A stretch of DNA of 64,000 nucleotides from Acidimicrobiales bacterium (GCA_035942035.1 DASZDK010000089.1:6490-70489); one strand, 5' to 3'. Shown: positions 54,490 through 64,000, numbered from the stretch's first letter. A program made the numbers and translations. Notes: generated by a model not told the origin, from the sequence alone.

Positions 54490-56295
54490 TCAGCCCACCT
54501 TTGTCAGCAACAATCCCTCGACGGGAGTCCAAGTGATCCCGGTCAAGGGCTCGATCTTCTGGTCCAGGCGAAGTCGAGGGTGCTCCAGCAGCAGCAAGGC
54601 GGTCTCGTCGCAGCGGCGGCCGATCAGCCGGTGGAACAGCGTGATCTCCTCGGGTGCGATGGGGACGTCGGCCGATGACCCGTCGCCCCGGTCTCCTCCT
54701 CCGAGGCCACCGACGGCCGTACGGGAAGCGGCGTCGGACTCGAAGGGGCTTGCCACCCGCTGTCTCAGGGTGGCGATGTCGCGGGAACCGGTGGGCGGGC
54801 ACAGAAGAACGGCGTGCGCGCCGGGAGGGAGCTCGTCGACCACGGCCGGCAGGGTGCGCGTAGGGTCGCCGTCCCGTAGTCGCTCCACGATGCCGCGCCA
54901 GTCGACGACTCGCTCGTCAGGCACCGGGCCGGCGGTGGTGACGTAGCGGAGGCCCGTCGGAAGGTAGTGGGACAGAAGGGGCGGCAACTGCGGATCCGGG
55001 GAGAGAACCACGTCACCCGGCCGCAGGGCGGAAGCAACCTGCGCGGCCGCCGCCTTGGCGTTGCTCTTCTGATAGGGAGGTGTTCTGACCGCGATGGGCG
55101 CGGTCAAGAACGCGACCACGGCGAGTGCCGCCACTCCCGTCCGACCGCCCCTGGCCAGCCCGGCCCCGGCGAGGAGTACCAGGGGGGCCACGACGACGGC
55201 GAGGTACCGGTAGGCGAAGAGGGAGGTGGCCCAGGCGCCGGCGACGACGACGATCGGCACGACGGCCATCCCGAACAGGGCCAGCCCTTCACGGTTCCAC
55301 GGCCAGCGCAGCATCGTCGCCAGCCCCACTCCCGCCCCGACGCCGAGCGCCACGGCGCCCTCCACGCCCCCCACCAGTGCCGCGACCTCGTTGCGAATGA
55401 GGAACAGGGTGGGCTTCTCGGCCCAGGGCTGGAGCTGCGCTGCATGCTGGTACAGCAGCGTTGGCAACCACGGCAGGTACAGCAGGCCGACGGCCCCGAA
55501 CGCCAGGGCGCCGTCGCGCAGCGTCCTGCGCCGCTCGGTTCCACTGGCGAGGACGAGCAAGACGACGAAGGTGACGGCACACCCCACGCCCACCAGCAGG
55601 CCCCAGTTGTGGGTGTAGAGCAGCAGCACGAGCGACGCGGCGAACCCGATGAGGTGCCCACGGCGACGGAAGACGAAGCCATGGGCGAAGGTCGCGACGA
55701 CGAAGAGCGTGAGCAGCACCACCAGCGAGTACATGCGCGTCTCGTTGGCGTAGTAGGCGATGAACGGGTTCACGCTGGCCACGAGAGCGCACATCCAGCC
55801 CGCTCGCCGCCCGAACAGGCTCCAGCCGGCCCACAGGGCTGTCGGCACCGTGGCCAGGGCGAAGATCAGCGACAGGAGGTGGGTGGCGCTCTCCGACGAT
55901 CCGAAGAGGGACATCCACACGTGGAGAAGCCCGTAGTAGAGCGGCGGGGAGCCGTCCTGTCGCAGCAGTTCGGGGATGCTCCCGAGGGGGTGCGAGGAGA
56001 TGCCGACGGCGATCCCTTCGTCCAGCCAGTACCACGCGCCCGACCCCCGTCCCCACAAGAAGGCGAGGAGCCCGACGAGACCGATCATCGCCACGACGTC
56101 GCGATGCAGGCGAAGTCGGGCGGGATGGGCGCGGCATCCGTTCCGAATCAGCGGCAACAGGCGCGTCGAGCGCCCGTTGACGCGCTCGACCCCTTCTTCG
56201 GGGGTCTTCTCGGCCAGCTCTGGGCGCTGTGTCAAGACCGTCTCACGTTGTCGCTCGGTTCCGGTTCCGTGGCCTGTCACTCCCGTCCACCCCAC
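54490..56295 (-). CDS. Polytopic GT-C glycosyltransferase, GT39/ArnT-like (paralogue of 24258..25862)
   Basis: YWLDEGIAVGISSHP, DGSPPLYYGLLHVW, NETRMYSL and LLLYTHNWGLL align motif-for-motif with the 24258 gene product. The start is uncertain. Confidence 0.8.
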   Translation of the reverse strand: MGWTGVTGHGTGTERQRETVLTQRPELAEKTPEEGVERVNGRSTRLLPLIRNGCRAHPARLRLHRDVVAMIGLVGLLAFLWGRGSGAWYWLDEGIAVGISSHPLGSIPELLRQDGSPPLYYGLLHVWMSLFGSSESATHLLSLIFALATVPTALWAGWSLFGRRAGWMCALVASVNPFIAYYANETRMYSLVVLLTLFVVATFAHGFVFRRRGHLIGFAASLVLLLYTHNWGLLVGVGCAVTFVVLLVLASGTERRRTLRDGALAFGAVGLLYLPWLPTLLYQHAAQLQPWAEKPTLFLIRNEVAALVGGVEGAVALGVGAGVGLATMLRWPWNREGLALFGMAVVPIVVVAGAWATSLFAYRYLAVVVAPLVLLAGAGLARGGRTGVAALAVVAFLTAPIAVRTPPYQKSNAKAAAAQVASALRPGDVVLSPDPQLPPLLSHYLPTGLRYVTTAGPVPDERVVDWRGIVERLRDGDPTRTLPAVVDELPPGAHAVLLCPPTGSRDIATLRQRVASPFESDAASRTAVGGLGGGDRGDGSSADVPIAPEEITLFHRLIGRRCDETALLLLEHPRLRLDQKIEPLTGITWTPVEGLLLTKVG

Positions 56296-56556: not shown

Positions 56557-58080
56557 GTGTTCCCGGTGCCCGCCCGGCAGCCACTTCCGGGAACCGAGGA
56601 CCAGATGCGGAAGCACGATGTCACGTCACCAAACTCCCGTCTCCGCACGGGGCGACCGCATCGGCGCCTGGGGGAACCGATCGTGGCAGCATCTCTCGGC
56701 CTGCTGGGAGTGCTCGCAGCCCTGCTCCAGCTGTTCTGGGGTCAAGACATCGGCCTCGCTGACAACGGCGACGGCTTCCGGCTGATGTGCCACTTCCGCT
56801 TGGAGAAGGCGGCGGACGTAATCGCTGACCCGCTCCTGCTCCACTACCGTCCGGTGTCCGTCCATTGCCCGCCGGGGCTGGCGTACCTGTCGTCGCAGCA
56901 GTGGTTGGTCCGCCCGGCGGTGTGGATCTACCAGCTGCGCTACGAATCAGGCTTCGACCTCCGGGTTCTGGGCATCCTGCACTCGGCGCTGTTCGGGCTG
57001 CTCCTCGCCGCGCTGTATCTCGCCCTGCCCGGGCGCCGCCACGCTCGGGTGGTCACGGTCGTGGTGGCTGCGGTCATGCTTGCCGATGTCACCTTCGTGA
57101 CCTACTTCGTGTCCCCGTTCAGTGAGCCAGCGACCTTCTTGGGGCTCCTGGCGATGGTGGCAGCCACGGCTTGGTATGTCCGAGCCCCGGGGAGTCCGTG
57201 GGTGCCGCTCGTGGTCGTGACCTTGGCCACGGCGTTCCTGATTTTGGCCAAGTCGCAGACCTTCGTGTTTGCTTTTCTGGTCGTACCCGTCCTGCTGTCG
57301 AGAACGGTGGAGACAAGGGCTCTTTCGGGGCCGTGGAGCGGCCGCATCGTGCCCGCAGCCGCCGGTGCGGTGCTTGTTGTCACGGCGGCGGGGAACCTAC
57401 TGCAACAGCCGACGTACTTTCTCGAGGGCAACAACCACAATCTGGTGTTTCACACCCTGCTCGTCGACTCGCCGGACCCTCGGTCCGTCCTGCGCTCATT
57501 GGGCGTGTCGGATGATCTCGTGCGCTATCGGGGCACGGGGTACTTCGATCCAGCGGCTGCCGGCAAGGCCGAGGACCCTCAGTACCAAGAGTTCGTTCGG
57601 GTCGTAGGCCGGCGGGAGCTGCTGGTGTACCTCGCCACCCACCCGCATCACTGGCCGCCCCTACTACAGGCCGGTGCGGAGGCCGTGGCCGAGCTCCGGA
57701 CCACCTACCTTTCCAACTACCCGGAGCCCCGTCCGAACGGCGACATCCTCGCCACCCGGCCGAACCCCACCGAGCGGCTGATCGGCTTGCTCCGCCCGGT
57801 CAGCTGGCCCCTGCTGCCGGTGATCTGGCTGGCGGCAATGGTCGGTGGTGCCGTCGCCTTGTTCCGGCGCTCGTCGCAGCGCGATGCCCGGGCGTTGGGG
57901 GCCGTCTGCTTCCTCCTCGGCGCCACGGCAGCGAGCCAAGTCGTCGTCGCCGTGGTTGGCGACGGCTACTACGAACTGGTGAAGCACACCGTGCTCGCCG
58001 GGTACGCCACCGCCCTGCTCCTCGCCGTGGGCGTCGGTGCCCTCGTGCCCGTGGTGGGACGCCGTCTGCGGCGTCGATGA
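56557..58080 (+). CDS. Polytopic membrane protein of unknown family (GT-C-like candidate)
   Basis: 507-aa ORF with about 9 TM segments. Acidic first-loop motif GLADNGDGF. Alternative start ATG 56605. Confidence 0.6.
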   Translation: MFPVPARQPLPGTEDQMRKHDVTSPNSRLRTGRPHRRLGEPIVAASLGLLGVLAALLQLFWGQDIGLADNGDGFRLMCHFRLEKAADVIADPLLLHYRPVSVHCPPGLAYLSSQQWLVRPAVWIYQLRYESGFDLRVLGILHSALFGLLLAALYLALPGRRHARVVTVVVAAVMLADVTFVTYFVSPFSEPATFLGLLAMVAATAWYVRAPGSPWVPLVVVTLATAFLILAKSQTFVFAFLVVPVLLSRTVETRALSGPWSGRIVPAAAGAVLVVTAAGNLLQQPTYFLEGNNHNLVFHTLLVDSPDPRSVLRSLGVSDDLVRYRGTGYFDPAAAGKAEDPQYQEFVRVVGRRELLVYLATHPHHWPPLLQAGAEAVAELRTTYLSNYPEPRPNGDILATRPNPTERLIGLLRPVSWPLLPVIWLAAMVGGAVALFRRSSQRDARALGAVCFLLGATAASQVVVAVVGDGYYELVKHTVLAGYATALLLAVGVGALVPVVGRRLRRR

Positions 58081-58084
58081 GCAG

Positions 58085-58630
58085 CTACGGCCGCCGCACC
58101 ACTCCGACGGTGTCGGTGCGGTTGCCGTCCCAGTCGCCGATGACCGGGACGTCACCGGGGTCGCCGTAGCTCAGGCTCACGTCCCCCACGCCGGTGGTGT
58201 TGGCGTTGCGCAGGTACCAGGTGCCGCCTCGCTTGACCCCGACGCTGTCGGTGCGGTTGCCGTCCCAGTCGCCGATGACCGGGACGTCACCGGGGTCACC
58301 GTAGCCCAGGCTCACGTCGCCCACGCCGGTGGTGTTGGCGTTGCGCAGGTACCAGGTGCCGCCCCGCTTGACCCCGACGGTGTCGGTCCCGTTGCCGTCC
58401 CAGTCCCCACAGATGGGGACGTCATCGGCGTTCCCGTAGAAGAAGCTCGTCTCGGCCGACGTGGGGGCGCTGGACGTCCGCAGGGAGAACCTCCCCGACG
58501 TGAAGGTGCCGGGGGTGTCGACGCCGTCGCCGTTCCAATCGCAGCTGAGCACGTGGGCGTCGGGGGGGCCGTAGGCGAACGACACGTCGGCAATTCCCGT
58601 CGTCAAGGAGTTCCGCAGGTACCACGTCGC
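58085..58630 (-). repeat. In-frame tandem 135-bp (45-aa) repeats, FG-GAP-like D-x-D-G-N-G-x-D motif
   Basis: Unit landmarks (TGTCGG) at 58111, 58246 and 58381. Units 58111-58245 and 58246-58380 are nearly identical. Consensus GDWDGNxTDxVGVKRGGTWYLRNANTTGVGDVSLxYGDPGDVPVI. Confidence 0.9.
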
Positions 58631-59863
58631 CTGCCGTCGCGCCGGTGCGGCGACGAAGAACCAGTCGGAGCGCAGGCCGAACTGTGCCCGGAACTGGGCA
58701 CCGGTCCGGGTGACCGAGCCGGAAGCGCCGCGGACCACCACCTCCAGCACCCGCCCGCCGCCAGCGCCGAGGCCGTTGCGCCGGGTGACGTCGACCGCTT
58801 GGAGGGAGCCGATGGTCGGGAAGGCCGACTCGATGGAGGCGACCGGGATGCTGGCCCTCCAGTTGTGGTTGGGCGATCGGGTGTCGCCCCGGTCCTCCAC
58901 CGCGGGGAAGGTGCCGCCGGCGCTCCAGCCGCCGGTGGAGGACGAGAACTCCGTGGTGGCCACCGCCCCAGACGGGAAGCGACGAACCTCGGCGAAGGTC
59001 TCGCGGATGGCGAGGTCGGTGTTGGCCTGCTCGACGGCCGTGACCGTGCCGTTGGGGGCCGCCGTCGCCACCCCCCCGTAGACCTGGCACGACGTGGTGT
59101 CGCAGGTCTTGGCGAAGGGGTACCGGCCCTGGCTCTGTGCGTACGAACGGGCGGCCACCGCCTGGGCGCGCAAGGCATGCATGCCCAGCCCACCCCCGAG
59201 GTTCCCCCACGACGTCGGCGACTCCAGGGGGACGACGCCTCTCAGGTACGACTCCATGGAGAGGTGGTTGATCGTCCTGGTCACGCCCGCGCTGTCGAGG
59301 ACCTGGAGGCTGCCTCGAAGCCAGCGGCGGGTGCCGTCTGGCTCGCAGGCCTGGATCATCGAGCCACGGTCGTCCCCGGAAGGCGCCTGGGGGAAGAAGG
59401 TGACGGGTCCCGCCACCTGGGCCAGCGGGAACCAGGGCGCGCCGCAGCCGGCGGACTGCTCGACGGCGAAGGTGTTGGCTCCGACCCGGCGGGCCCGGAG
59501 GGCGGCGTAGGAGCCGGCGGCAGCGCTCGTGCCCAGTTGGCCCCGTTCCTGCATCACCGCCGTGTCCCGTCCGTCGAAGCGGATGAGTCGCACGCTCATG
59601 GGCACGTCTGCTCCGAGCGAGCCCGCCGTGGTACCGCCGTAGTAGTGGTTCAGGATCCGGTCGTAGGTCCACCCGTGGTCGAGCGCGTACCCCAGCGCCC
59701 CCCACTGGCCCAGCCCCCGGCCGTGGCCCCAGCCGTGGCCGGTCAGCTCGACGGTGGGGGAAGGGTAGGCGTGGGCCACCGGTGCAATCGCGCCCAGCAG
59801 CCCGGCACAGACCAGAACGGCGGCGGCAAGCCGCCGGGCAACGGGCAGCCTCGCATCAGCCAC
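58085..59863 (-). CDS. Secreted SpoIID/LytB-domain protein with C-terminal 45-aa repeat array
   Basis: GTG at 59863 overlaps the upstream stop by 8 nt (GTGGCTGA). Signal peptide VADARLPVARRLAAAVLVCAGLLGAIAPVAHA. GHGWGHGRGLGQWGA and ALRAQAVAARSYA SpoIID motifs. Four to five C-terminal repeats. Confidence 0.88.
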   Translation of the reverse strand: MADARLPVARRLAAAVLVCAGLLGAIAPVAHAYPSPTVELTGHGWGHGRGLGQWGALGYALDHGWTYDRILNHYYGGTTAGSLGADVPMSVRLIRFDGRDTAVMQERGQLGTSAAAGSYAALRARRVGANTFAVEQSAGCGAPWFPLAQVAGPVTFFPQAPSGDDRGSMIQACEPDGTRRWLRGSLQVLDSAGVTRTINHLSMESYLRGVVPLESPTSWGNLGGGLGMHALRAQAVAARSYAQSQGRYPFAKTCDTTSCQVYGGVATAAPNGTVTAVEQANTDLAIRETFAEVRRFPSGAVATTEFSSSTGGWSAGGTFPAVEDRGDTRSPNHNWRASIPVASIESAFPTIGSLQAVDVTRRNGLGAGGGRVLEVVVRGASGSVTRTGAQFRAQFGLRSDWFFVAAPARRQATWYLRNSLTTGIADVSFAYGPPDAHVLSCDWNGDGVDTPGTFTSGRFSLRTSSAPTSAETSFFYGNADDVPICGDWDGNGTDTVGVKRGGTWYLRNANTTGVGDVSLGYGDPGDVPVIGDWDGNRTDSVGVKRGGTWYLRNANTTGVGDVSLSYGDPGDVPVIGDWDGNRTDTVGVVRRP

Positions 59864-60494
59864 GCAGGTACCACCCGATCCCGCGCCGGAAGCCGACGCT
59901 GTCGGTGCCGTTCCCGTCCCAGTCACCGGTGACGGGGGTGTCACCGGGCTCGCCGTAGTGCACGTGAAGGTGGGCCACGCCGGTGGTGTTGGCGTTGCGC
60001 AGGTACCAGGCGCCGCCCCGGTGCACCCCGACGGTGTCGGTGCGGTTGCCGTCCCAGTCACCGATGACCGGGACGTCACCGGGGTCGCCGTAGCCCAGGC
60101 TCACTTCCCCCACGCCGGTGGTGTTGGAGTTGCGCAGGTACCAGGTGCGGCCTCGCTTGACGCCGACGGTGTCGGTGCGGTTGCCGTCCCAGTCGCCGAC
60201 GACCGGGACGTCACCGGGGTCGCCGTAGCCCAGGCTCACGTCCCCCACGCCGGTGGTGTTGGAGTTGCGCAGGTACCAGGTGCCGCCTCGCCTGACCCCG
60301 ACGGTGTCGGTGCCGTTGGCGTCCCAGTCGCCGCACAGCGGGATGTCGTCGGGGTTGCCGTAGTTGAACGCCCACACCTCCGGGCCGTCGTTGCGGAGGT
60401 AGAAGCGACCCCGGCGGAACACGCCGGGCGTGTCGGTGCCGTTGCCGTCCCAGTCGCACGCCAGGGGCACGTCGTCGGCGTTGCCGTAGAGGAG
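59856..60494 (-). repeat. In-frame tandem 135-bp (45-aa) repeats homologous to 58085..58630
   Basis: Unit landmarks (TGTCGG) at 59900, 60035, 60170 and 60305 (period 135), then 60431. Units at 60035 and 60170 match those at 58111/58246 over most of their length. Confidence 0.9.
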
Positions 60495-61613
60495 TGGCCC
60501 TCCGCCGGTGTGCTCGGCGGCGACGTCAGCACGGAGCCGCTCCAGCTGCCGGTACGTGAGGTCGCCCGGGCACACCGTGGTGCTCACGTCACGGTGGCCG
60601 CTGATGGTGCTCAACGTCACCTTGGTCCCCGCGGCGTAGCGGGAACTTCCGGCGGAGGTGACCGTGACCGAGTCGTCTGCCGCCACACCGTGGAGGGACA
60701 GCTTCCACCCCAGGAGGGAGACCAGGCCGGAGTAGGCCTCCGCCGGTAGGGTGCTGTCCTGGAAGGACCCGAGCACGGCCACCCCGGTGCTGCCGCTGTT
60801 GAAGCCGCCGGCGTGGGCACCGACGACGGCTCGGTCGATCCCGCCGGCCCGGCCCTCGAACACCTGCCCGTAGCGGTCGACCACGAAGTTGTACCCGATG
60901 TCGCACCACTTGTTGGTGTGGGTGTGGAAGTAGTAGATGCCGCGGACGGCGGCGGCGGCGTCGCTGCGGGCGTAGGCATTGGACGAGGCGGTGTGGTGGA
61001 TGATGGCGTTGCGCACGGTGCTGGCGTACTCGGGCCGGCCGTCGCAACCCGGGGCGACCGTCCGCCAGCTCTCGTTGGCGCCCCACTGGCTCCGGCTGAT
61101 CACCGGCGGTTGGGCGACGGCCGCCCCGGCCGGCCGGGTCCCCACCCCGGCGGCCTCCTCGCTGTCGATGGCGTGCATCTTGAGGTCGCGCAGCCGTCCC
61201 TTGCCCACCCGCACCTGGACCTGGCGCACGTCGTGGCCCACCCAAGCCGGTCCCGCCGACGTACGGCCGCGGTCCTCCAACGAGCCGGGGTCCGGCGCTT
61301 CGTCCAGGCCGCCCTCGACGTGGAGCCACTCGCTCCAGCCGCGCTCCTGGCGGACTCGCATCTCGACCTCGCCGGGGGCGTGGCCCTGCCAGTCGAAGCC
61401 GATCATCTCGGCACCGAGGCCGGTCTCGAGCTGGCGCTCCCAGCCTCGGGTCACCTCGCCGGCGCTCAACGGCGTCGTCTTGCCCTCGACGGAGGGACGG
61501 GGCTGGGCCGGCGGAGCCAGTAGCCCGGTGGCGACCAGGGTCACCACCATGGTCAGGGTCACGGCCCTGGGGGCCAGAGGGCGGAGGAGAGGGGTTCGAT
61601 GCGATGGCGGCAT
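59856..61613 (-). CDS. Secreted N-acetylmuramoyl-L-alanine amidase (Amidase_2/PGRP domain) with C-terminal 45-aa repeat array
   Basis: Signal/anchor segment VTLTMVVTLVATGLLAPPA. IIHHTAS, WCDIGYNFVVDRYG and GAHAGGFNSGSTGVAVLG amidase motifs. Five C-terminal repeats of the same family as in the downstream gene. Confidence 0.88.
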   Translation of the reverse strand: MPPSHRTPLLRPLAPRAVTLTMVVTLVATGLLAPPAQPRPSVEGKTTPLSAGEVTRGWERQLETGLGAEMIGFDWQGHAPGEVEMRVRQERGWSEWLHVEGGLDEAPDPGSLEDRGRTSAGPAWVGHDVRQVQVRVGKGRLRDLKMHAIDSEEAAGVGTRPAGAAVAQPPVISRSQWGANESWRTVAPGCDGRPEYASTVRNAIIHHTASSNAYARSDAAAAVRGIYYFHTHTNKWCDIGYNFVVDRYGQVFEGRAGGIDRAVVGAHAGGFNSGSTGVAVLGSFQDSTLPAEAYSGLVSLLGWKLSLHGVAADDSVTVTSAGSSRYAAGTKVTLSTISGHRDVSTTVCPGDLTYRQLERLRADVAAEHTGGGPLLYGNADDVPLACDWDGNGTDTPGVFRRGRFYLRNDGPEVWAFNYGNPDDIPLCGDWDANGTDTVGVRRGGTWYLRNSNTTGVGDVSLGYGDPGDVPVVGDWDGNRTDTVGVKRGRTWYLRNSNTTGVGEVSLGYGDPGDVPVIGDWDGNRTDTVGVHRGGAWYLRNANTTGVAHLHVHYGEPGDTPVTGDWDGNGTDSVGFRRGIGWYLRG

Positions 61614-61682: not shown

Positions 61683-62891
61683 TCAGCTGCCGGGCGCTCC
61701 GGGACCGAGGTGCCACACGCCCCCGAGGGAGACCAGCCCGCCCTCGGTCTCGTGGGGGGTGCCGGGGTCCACGTCGAAGCGGACGGCCCGGTGGCGATGA
61801 TCGTAGGTGTGCAGGGCGGCGTAGTCGGTGACGGAGGCGGAGGCGTCGTAGGTGCCGGGGAGGAGAAGGAGGCGGTCGACGACGAGGTCCACCACCCCGT
61901 CGCCTTCGATGCGCTCGGGCACCAACCCGGACTGGCGGGTGGTGGGGTGGGTGAGCTCGACGCCTTGGAGCGTGTGCAGCGCCATGGCGAACACCGGCCG
62001 TTCGACGGGCTGGCTGGCGGCGTAGTGCATGCGGAAGGTGACGGCGTCGCCGGTACGGGCCCTGGTCACGGGTTCGCCTGAGGCGTCGAGCACCTCGAGC
62101 TGCTCCACCACCACCTCGCCCGATCCCCAGCGGGAGCCCAGTCCACCCTCGTCGGCCCGCCCGACGTGGACGTGGTCGAGATAGGCGTCGACCACCTCGT
62201 CGGCGGGCCCGATGTGGCGTAACCGGCCCTCGTCGACCCAGCCGACCACGTCACACAGCGAGCGCACGGAGCCGAGGTCGTGGGTGACGATGACGATGGT
62301 GATGCCCTGAGCCTTGAGCTGGAAGAACTTCTCGTTGCACTTGCGCTGGAACTGCTCGTCCCCCACGGCCAGGACCTCGTCGACGAGGAGCACGTCGGGG
62401 CCGACGTTGATGGCCACCGAGAAGCCCAGCCGCACGTACATGCCCGACGAGTAGTTCTTGACCGGGCTGTCGATGAAGCGCTGGAGGCCGGCGAAGGCGA
62501 CGATGTCGTCGAACTTGCGATCGAGCTCCTTGCGGCCCAGGCCGAGGATCGAGCCGTTGAGGTAGACGTTCTCCCGGCCGGAGAGCTCGGGGTGGAAGCC
62601 GGCCCCGAGCTCGAGCAGGGCCGACACCTTCCCCTCCACCGAGATGTGGCCCGAGTCCGGCCGCAGGATCTTGGCGATGCACTTGAGCAGCGTGCTCTTG
62701 CCCGAGCCGTTCTCGCCGATGAAGCCGAAGGTCTTGCCGGAGGGGATCTCCAGGGAGACGTCGCGCAGCGCCCAGTGCTCCTCGTAGCGGCTGCGGCCTC
62801 GCCGCATGAGGGTGGCCTTCAGGCTCTGGTTGCGCTCCTGGTAGAGCCGGAAGCGCTTGGAGACGGCGTCGACGGTGACGGCGGCGCTCAT
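61683..62891 (-). CDS. wzt: Polysaccharide ABC exporter ATP-binding protein (Wzt/TagH type) with ~150-aa C-terminal extension
   Basis: Start MSAAVTVDAVSKRF. Walker A GENGSGKST, signature YSSGM, Walker B LLVDEVLAVGD. The C-terminal region GEVVVEQLEV...VTFRMHY...LLPGTY looks like a Wzt_C-type beta-sandwich. Confidence 0.9.
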   Translation of the reverse strand: MSAAVTVDAVSKRFRLYQERNQSLKATLMRRGRSRYEEHWALRDVSLEIPSGKTFGFIGENGSGKSTLLKCIAKILRPDSGHISVEGKVSALLELGAGFHPELSGRENVYLNGSILGLGRKELDRKFDDIVAFAGLQRFIDSPVKNYSSGMYVRLGFSVAINVGPDVLLVDEVLAVGDEQFQRKCNEKFFQLKAQGITIVIVTHDLGSVRSLCDVVGWVDEGRLRHIGPADEVVDAYLDHVHVGRADEGGLGSRWGSGEVVVEQLEVLDASGEPVTRARTGDAVTFRMHYAASQPVERPVFAMALHTLQGVELTHPTTRQSGLVPERIEGDGVVDLVVDRLLLLPGTYDASASVTDYAALHTYDHRHRAVRFDVDPGTPHETEGGLVSLGGVWHLGPGAPGS

Positions 62892-62913: not shown

Positions 62914-63738
62914 TCACAGCTCCTCGGCCAGCTTGGGCTCGAGGCGGTTGAAGACCAGCAGCCCGATGGCCAGGGCCAGCGCCGACACGACCAGCAGGTA
63001 GCCCAGGTCACCCACCGGAGGAATGCGCAGGTCATAGAGCAGGTCGCGGTAGGCCTCCACGAAGCGGACCATGGGGTTGAGCTCGTAGATGGCCCTGAGG
63101 GGCAGGTCGAACCCGAACAGCTCGACGGTCGTCGGCACCACGGTCAGCGGATAGACGATGGGGGTGCTGTAGAACCAGAGCTGCAGCAGGATCGCCATGA
63201 GGTGCTGCACGTCACGAAAGTAGACGTTGAGCACGCTGAGGAGCAGGCCGATCCCGACCACGAACATCGCTTGCACGGCCACCAGCACGACGACCGCCGG
63301 CAACCACGGCAGCACCATGTTGCCGGCGATCAGCAGGGCCACGGCGAACACCGCCAGCTCGATCAACAGCGACACCAGCCAGGACGCCACGTTGGCGGCC
63401 ACCAGGATCTCCCGGGGGAAGTAGACCTTCTGGATCAGCGTGGCGTTGTTGATCAGGGCGGTCATCCCCCCGTTCATGCCGTTGGCCAGGAAGTTCCACG
63501 GAAGCAGGCCGCAGAGCAGGTAGAAGGCGAAGACGTTCATCCCACTGGGGTCACCCGGGGGAATGCGAACCCTCAGGAACACCAGGAACACCACGGTGAA
63601 GATGGCCATGGTGACCAGCGGGTTGAACAGCGACCACGTCCAGCCGAGGATCGAGCGCTTGTACTTGCCCCGGAGCTCCCGGAGCGTGAGGTTGACCATG
63701 AGCTCCCGGGCGTTCGAGAGTTCGGTCAGCGTGGCCAT
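62914..63738 (-). CDS. wzm: ABC-2 type polysaccharide exporter permease (Wzm/TagG type)
   Basis: LTLRELRGKYKRSILGWTWSLFNP N-terminal signature and six TM segments. ATG 63738 (GTG 63756 alternative). Confidence 0.9.
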   Translation of the reverse strand: MATLTELSNARELMVNLTLRELRGKYKRSILGWTWSLFNPLVTMAIFTVVFLVFLRVRIPPGDPSGMNVFAFYLLCGLLPWNFLANGMNGGMTALINNATLIQKVYFPREILVAANVASWLVSLLIELAVFAVALLIAGNMVLPWLPAVVVLVAVQAMFVVGIGLLLSVLNVYFRDVQHLMAILLQLWFYSTPIVYPLTVVPTTVELFGFDLPLRAIYELNPMVRFVEAYRDLLYDLRIPPVGDLGYLLVVSALALAIGLLVFNRLEPKLAEEL

Positions 63739-64000
63739 GAGCGTTCTCCGGGGCACGGGGCCGCAGGGGATGCGGCGCTGATGCCCGCGTCCAGAAGCGC
63801 CGATGATGCCACGGCCCTCGCGGCGGCGGGCGAATCGGTGCCGGTAGCCGGCGGCGTGCTGGGTGACGCCCTGGCTCCAGGCGGAGCCGGGGCTAGGGTG
63901 GCCGGCGATCAGGTCGTCGAGGCGGGTCGGGTGGAATTGACAGACGTCAAGCAGCCGGGGACCAGTGACGATCTCAGGCTCGTCGAGGCCTTCCGTGTCC

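Follow-up and report, generated by a model that had tools for sequence, protein, structure and literature searches.

The window analyzed here is a 64,000-nucleotide (nt) stretch of DNA from an Acidimicrobiales bacterium (GCA_035942035.1, DASZDK010000089.1:6490-70489). It contains two overlapping genes, hereinafter referred to as A and B, which are predicted to encode a coupled pair of peptidoglycan hydrolases. Both proteins end in the same 45-amino-acid (aa) repeat, which is predicted to form a β-propeller of the VCBS/FG-GAP type and whose inner units appear to have been exchanged between the two genes. The following features of the pair were identified, all on the minus strand:

59856..61613, minus strand: gene A, open reading frame of 585 aa; Rv3811_N-like β-sandwich, Amidase_2/PGRP domain and five-blade propeller; predicted N-acetylmuramoyl-L-alanine amidase, secreted or anchored
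60561..61022, minus strand: Amidase_2 catalytic domain of A (aa 198-351)
59859..60491, minus strand: propeller of A (aa ~375-585); five 45-aa blades, each with a D-W-D-G-N-G loop
60024..60323, minus strand: shared tract, copy in A, from the end of blade 2 to blade 4
58085..59863, minus strand: gene B, open reading frame of 592 aa with a GTG start; SpoIID/LytB-type secreted protein with four DW-loop blades as assembled
58646..59281, minus strand: SpoIID/LytB catalytic region of B (aa ~195-406)
58088..58597, minus strand: propeller of B (aa ~423-592); four DW loops, first strand TWYLRN, last strand TVGVVR
58100..58399, minus strand: shared tract, copy in B, from the end of blade 2 to blade 4
59856..59863, minus strand: overlap of A and B, 8 nt, containing the GTG start of B and the TGA stop of A

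The two genes are arranged head to tail, and the 8-nt overlap described in the initial annotation was found at 59863-59856 (GTGGCTGA, read on the minus strand). The same or a similarly tight junction (-8 to +23 nt) was present in the other loci L005-L010 and in a congeneric genome (G002). The enzyme identities proposed earlier were supported by scores above the model cut-offs: Amidase_2 in A (59.9 bits, cut-off 26; Pfam), SpoIID (PF08486) in B (65.5 bits, cut-off 23; Pfam), and SpoIID_LytB (TIGR02669) in B (116.6 bits, cut-off 83.3; NCBIfam). Orthologues of A were annotated with Rv3811_N (PF27503) and PF01510. Residues H206, H207, Y241, H340, T346, and C348 of A were invariant across 85 homologues, and the middle domain of the structural model of A resembled PGRPs (Foldseek E-value 1.3e-10; template modeling (TM) score 0.85, normalized by target length). 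Of the signal peptides claimed for both proteins, that of B was supported by a classical cleavage motif (AHA-YP). The N-terminus of A, in which charged residues precede a hydrophobic helix of 17 residues, could be either a signal peptide or a signal anchor. A and B are predicted to form a co-transcribed and translationally coupled pair of peptidoglycan hydrolases.

The repeats were present as first described, with four to five units per gene and a DNA period of 135 base pairs (bp). Tandem Repeats Finder detected period-135 arrays at 58104-58484 and 59893-60363, and the loop motif DW(D/N)G(N/D)G was found five times in A and four times in B at a spacing of 45 aa, except between the first two units of A (A1-A2, 42 aa). 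All nine units harbored a DxDxDG-type putative cation loop (D-W-D-G-N-G or D-W-N-G-D-G), with the motif DxDxNG. Homologues of B were mostly 625-650 aa long, about 45 aa longer than B of the window, and five loops were verified in the B orthologues that are paired with A and in protein P0277.

An AlphaFold2 model of full-length A, built with 85 homologues, had a mean predicted local distance difference test (pLDDT) score of 89.4, with values of about 95 over the repeats; the repeat region modeled alone, with no alignment, scored 39. The repeats of the full-length model contained 19 strands, four per 45-aa unit, between aa 382 and 583. The model is thus a confident array of four-stranded blades, and we infer that these close into a ring, as in a propeller. 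A strand with the sequence PLLYG at the N-terminus of the propeller probably closes the last blade of A. The propeller part of the model showed weak similarity (Foldseek E-value ~1e-3) to two lectins specific to N-acetylglucosamine (GlcNAc), AAL2 (4tqm) and PVL (4up4). Since the Foldseek query was the full-length model of A only, amidase matches dominated and those of the propeller were weak.

A match of the repeat to a well-characterized Pfam family was looked for, and no significant Pfam or NCBIfam model was found using either the whole proteins A and B or the isolated repeat region. FG-GAP_3 (PF13517) scored 8.3 bits against the repeats of the window (E-value 4.8), below its gathering threshold of 26.9, and had no match in full-length A or B in Pfam. 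No match to SLH, LysM, CW_binding_1/2, LGFP, or SH3b was obtained for the whole proteins at E ≤ 1 or for the repeat region at E ≤ 10, and no relative of the repeat was found in PDB by single-sequence search or by search with a 23-sequence profile (E ≤ 0.1 for the profile). PF27503 was considered as a new Pfam model for the repeat but was rejected; it corresponds to Rv3811_N, an N-terminal domain, and is moreover present on ricin-bearing orthologues without the repeat and missing from SpoIID proteins with the repeat.

The arrays of relatives scored 36.7 bits (P0128) and 30.2 bits (P0123) against FG-GAP_3, both passing the threshold, and 26.8 bits (P0299). In addition, the propeller profile (A3) aligned with a 38-aa PGDYDGDG-type repeat protein (L003) with an hhalign probability of 99.4% (E-value 3.7e-21, 141 aligned columns), the main difference being a seven-residue loop insertion, NxNTxGxxD, in the 45-aa unit. 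The resemblance of the D-x-D-G-x-G-x-D core to FG-GAP, noted in the initial annotation, was thus confirmed at the profile level. Because of the hhalign match and the relatives' arrays above the FG-GAP_3 threshold, the 45-aa repeat is classified here within the VCBS/FG-GAP supercluster, as a branch marked by an additional loop and not described before; the VCBS/FG-GAP_3 supercluster itself and its habit of re-amplifying inner blades have already been described (PMC8023676, PMC9218822).

In the genome of the window (G000), A and B were the sole carriers of the 45-aa propeller. The L003 protein is a third repeat protein of this genome, encoded at a contig edge (contig C64:92-526). It consists of a Thr-rich linker and four 38-40-aa PGDYDGDGxTD...WY units, which are homologous to the 45-aa unit without the seven-residue loop and match FG-GAP_3 weakly (E-value 0.0032). 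The product of the neighboring gene contains the motif MSLVGPRP, which we take to be that of a bacterial sugar transferase-like protein.

The repeat was widespread. A HMMER search of 1.84 billion representatives identified at least 21,921 clusters (50% identity) at E ≤ 1e-3, of which 4,036 were found at E ≤ 1e-30. Partner domains among 83 of the best matches included CAP, PKD, subtilase, glucose/sorbosone dehydrogenase, reprolysin-type metalloproteases, SpoIID, M23, VanY, VanW, polysaccharide deacetylase, beta-lactamase-like domains, and others, with CAP being the commonest among the representative matches. The same architecture was present in cultured Geodermatophilus, Blastococcus, Modestobacter, and Quadrisphaera. 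Motif counts gave 4-5, 9-10, or 15 loops per array, which suggests that the propeller may be built in units of five blades. Many of the partner enzymes do not act on the wall, so the propeller is confined neither to wall enzymes nor to this locus. With at least 21,921 clusters spread over diverse secreted enzymes, it is also no rarity of the locus.

The central units of A and B had been reported as nearly identical over more than 100 bp, and a comparison in register revealed a somewhat stronger similarity than this. The tract 58100-58399 in B and the tract 60024-60323 in A were identical at 284 of 300 nt (94.7%) without gaps, the longest exact match being 37 nt, while the edge units of A and B shared 52-70% DNA identity. 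The edge of the tract was abrupt at the 3' end of B, and on the other side the similarity decayed over approximately 60 nt. The greater similarity of the repeats than of the catalytic parts, remarked on in the initial annotation, is a trivial consequence of the two catalytic domains having unrelated folds.

The congener G002 possessed the same gene pair (contig C201). In the segment of units 2-3, the DNA identity between A and B was 93.5% in the window and 98% in G002, whereas the same segment was 84-86% identical between the window and G002; the catalytic domains were 82-84% identical between the two genomes. The synonymous divergence (dS) of the A-B tract was 0.096, compared with 0.53-0.58 for the orthologous catalytic domains of the window and G002, and the ratio of nonsynonymous to synonymous divergence (dN/dS) was 0.44 for the tract and 0.15-0.22 for the catalytic domains. 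Furthermore, blades A3, A4, B3, and B4 had their best matches in each other, and A1, A2, and B1 in the orthologous blades of other genomes. Inner blades that match across genes together with edge blades that match orthologues are the signature of a non-reciprocal exchange confined to the inner blades. Such an exchange of inner blades between A and B by non-reciprocal recombination, after speciation and within the genus, is well supported by these comparisons, and the edge blades evolve in a gene-specific manner.

The propellers of A and B shared 46-56% aa identity in the 12 other genomes that had both genes, whereas orthologues reached 76-84%. On this evidence, the uniformity of A and B is lineage-specific, since the two propellers of the 12 genomes were only 46-56% identical. 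A functional requirement for uniformity was rejected for the same reason. Homogenization by recombination, as proposed in the initial annotation, is well supported by dS, the blade matches, and G002, although the proposal that the repeats are kept uniform does not hold in general.

Other modules were found at the position of the propeller in related proteins. SLH domains were located there in A-type amidases of family relatives (E-values 1e-22 and 4e-15), and ricin lectin domains in other orthologues of A. The amidase and SpoIID orthologues P0084 and P0343, encoded on one 11,245-bp contig, both carried DUF346 repeats and no 45-aa propeller, indicating that the C-terminal module was switched in both enzymes together. 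In a metagenomic protein of 998 aa (P0311), Amidase_2 (aa 225-377) was fused to SpoIID (aa 554-649), and the C-terminus was a propeller in which at least four DW loops were present. Further unannotated repeat modules were observed at the end of A-type amidases in L013 (genome G036), L017 (G023), and L020 (G008). One is a YxLDGYGGxH...YWxGWDIAR repeat and the other a triple module of about 100 aa (GSLDLV...VHIYVDG...GFD...C.Y.IN.GPG.N.L.GCR), neither of which matched Pfam.

Upstream of A, the window contained two genes for a Wzm/Wzt-type ATP-binding cassette (ABC) exporter:

61683..62891, minus strand: Wzt ABC ATPase carrying the carbohydrate-binding domain Wzt_C, immediately upstream of A (Pfam ABC_tran, Wzt_C); start placed by analogy with 402-aa orthologues
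62914..63756, minus strand: Wzm ABC-2 permease, first gene of the wzm-wzt-A-B string (Pfam ABC2_membrane)

Genes encoding a family 2 glycosyltransferase (GT2), an epimerase, a flavoprotein that matched GLF faintly, and a DUF2142 membrane protein were also identified in the window. Because of the ABC-2 permease, the Wzt_C ATPase, GT2, the epimerase, and the other neighbors, the setting is predicted to be a Wzm/Wzt-type glycopolymer locus. The gene pair was associated with such a locus elsewhere as well, with the order wzm-wzt-(GT)-A-B, in which GT denotes a glycosyltransferase, conserved in all five other loci examined (L005, L006, L008, L009, and L010). A secreted CAP-domain protein encoded in the same glycopolymer locus of L009 (367-1581) ended in a five-blade copy of the propeller. 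On the other side of the pair, two large polytopic membrane proteins with no Pfam match were encoded at 56557-58080 (plus strand) and 54490-56295 (minus strand). The former gene is convergent with B, with stop codons 4 nt apart, and the orthologue of its product in L006 was annotated as YfdI_N.

Taken together, we consider it reasonably probable that A and B are a coupled hydrolase pair whose common VCBS/FG-GAP-like propeller serves as a lectin-type anchor and whose inner blades have been exchanged between the genes. In Bacillus, the SpoIID family cleaves glycan strands that have been denuded by an amidase, SpoIIP. By analogy, A, as a zinc amidase of the PGRP/Rv3811 type, would strip stem peptides from the glycan, and B would then cut the glycan strands stripped by the amidase. 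The tight coupling in every locus examined and the P0311 fusion argue for A and B working together. The propeller would most likely be a lectin-type anchor through which A and B are retained on one common envelope glycan, a plausible candidate being the polymer that the neighboring Wzm/Wzt system exports.

Support for a wall-targeting role of the propeller is indirect but convergent, and comes from its replacement by SLH, ricin, or DUF346, the wzm-wzt-A-B order, the CAP protein of L009, and the precedent of UmbA. The UmbA proteins of Streptomyces are secreted and have lectin propellers of five, six, or seven blades with conserved Ca-type loops, and experiments demonstrated that the six-bladed UmbA4 binds a teichuronic acid polymer of the wall (PMC13274773).

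Several observations weigh against this interpretation. The matches to lectin folds were weak, with a TM score of about 0.33 normalized by target length. A count of only four DW loops, as in B, is unusual for this propeller family. The distribution of the 45-aa propeller was patchy, with only three of 41 related genomes carrying it, and it was not restricted to wall enzymes, being attached also to proteases, CAP domains, and dehydrogenases, among others. Moreover, the order of SpoIID after amidase is borrowed from Bacillus, and the sequence itself points to no particular ligand, which might just as well be peptidoglycan as the polymer of the locus.

Both parts of the interpretation, blade exchange and anchoring, can be set against other explanations. 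Regarding the exchange, a contig from another sample (L006), 99.25% identical at the DNA level, encoded A and B that were each one 45-aa unit shorter (540 and 547 aa), which reflects either copy-number polymorphism or assembly collapse. In L006 (2702-5960), the unit junctions lay within identical stretches of neighboring units. The similarity of the repeats may make the blade number unstable, or prone to collapse in assembly, and the A-B similarity and the unit numbers might themselves be artefacts of short-read metagenome assembly across 135-bp near-repeats, in the form of chimeric or collapsed contigs. The strain assembly with exactly one unit fewer in both genes would be in accordance with this, as would the contig of G002, which ends inside the array of B. 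However, such an artefact appears highly improbable, given that the two copies differed at 16 spread positions and were therefore not merged, that the independent L006 assembly gave the same blade sequences, that G002 showed the same pattern with its own species-specific residues, and that near-identical inner blades were seen in other assemblies.

Regarding the anchor, the propeller might bind peptidoglycan itself, through GlcNAc or N-acetylmuramic acid, as a LysM-like substrate module unconnected to the glycopolymer locus. This would be consistent with the GlcNAc specificity of PVL and AAL2, the closest structural matches, with the restriction of the propeller to A and B in the genome of the window, and with its spread over very many lineages and enzyme types, which fits a universal ligand. 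Nevertheless, we regard a peptidoglycan ligand as rather unlikely, since SLH, which binds secondary wall polymers, ricin, and DUF346 occurred at the same position in relatives and the synteny with Wzm/Wzt was tight in every locus examined; the fast divergence of the inner blades between species (dN/dS 0.44) also fits a variable ligand better. Alternatively, the propeller could be no lectin and act as a protein-protein platform that joins A and B or docks on a membrane partner, as integrin and WD40 propellers do. A and B were always adjacent and sometimes fused, and some VCBS-supercluster propellers serve in protein contacts as well (PMC9218822). The modules that replaced the propeller in relatives, however, were carbohydrate or wall binders (SLH and ricin) or the uncharacterized DUF346, none of which is established for protein interaction, and the propeller was present on many unrelated secreted enzymes without a common partner, which makes a protein platform improbable.

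The lectin-type anchor thus remains the interpretation that we prefer. A bolder extension of it, which we put forward only tentatively and consider doubtful, is that the NxNTxG-loop propeller represents a major unrecognized class of non-covalent secondary-wall-polymer anchors in Actinomycetota, equivalent to SLH. It would read the species-specific polymer of Wzm/Wzt, and blade exchange would keep both enzymes tuned to a changing polymer.

The propeller occurs in more than 20,000 protein clusters and has no curated model and no detectable solved structure. If it is a wall-polymer anchor, it would explain the retention and aiming of many secreted enzymes in uncultured and cultured actinobacteria, and would extend the few known targeting domains of autolysins by one of the propeller type. 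The A/B pair also illustrates clearly, in a natural setting, how blades can pass from one gene to another, beyond the known re-amplification within genes.

With respect to known systems, A and B would fall within autolysins that have C-terminal glycan-binding repeats and within VCBS-type propeller lectins. They share with the SLH, LysM, choline-binding, CWB2, and LGFP autolysins a C-terminal repeat module after the catalytic domain, but the repeats have no sequence relationship to these modules and are predicted to form a propeller fold, not a helical or beta-hairpin repeat. The architecture of Rv3811_N and Amidase_2, annotated on orthologues of A, is that of the Rv3811 (Csp) amidase of Mycobacterium tuberculosis. 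In mycobacteria, the C-terminal module probably consists of LGFP repeats instead, of which a literature check found no mention. As in SpoIIP-SpoIID of Bacillus, an amidase is paired with an enzyme of the SpoIID family, here by overlapping genes and in P0311 within one protein. Unlike that system, the amidase is of the Amidase_2/PGRP type and not a homologue of SpoIIP, both enzymes carry a propeller, and the host is an actinobacterium in which a sporulation context is not evident.

The UmbA lectin propellers are likewise actinobacterial, secreted, and equipped with Ca-type loops, but they are located on trypsin-like domains of a toxin particle and target the walls of other species. A profile search of PDB sequences for a relationship to UmbA was empty at E ≤ 0.1, and whether UmbA4 was present in that set was not checked.

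The closest resemblance is to the VCBS/FG-GAP_3 supercluster, including the "VCBS actinolectins," PVL, and tachylectin-2 (PMC8023676), with which the repeats share four-stranded blades of about 40-45 aa, the DxDxDG-type loop, conserved G and W before strand C, and an occurrence in secreted bacterial proteins beside catalytic domains. The blades of the window differ from this supercluster in the extra seven-residue NxNTxGxxD loop, the apparent multiples of five, and the sub-threshold score, and no solved structure of their propeller was detectable by profile. Re-amplified VCBS propellers show the same near-identical inner blades and diverged outer blades, and even at more than 80% identity such proteins differ in blade number, as is seen here (PMC9218822). 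Sharing of blades between genes is not described in that study, and the term "gene conversion" is absent from it. Unlike in those propellers, the homogenized blades of the window are also common to two genes 1.9 kb apart. Homogeneity within genes and a variable blade number are thus already known for VCBS propellers, and what is added here is a set of blades common to two genes.

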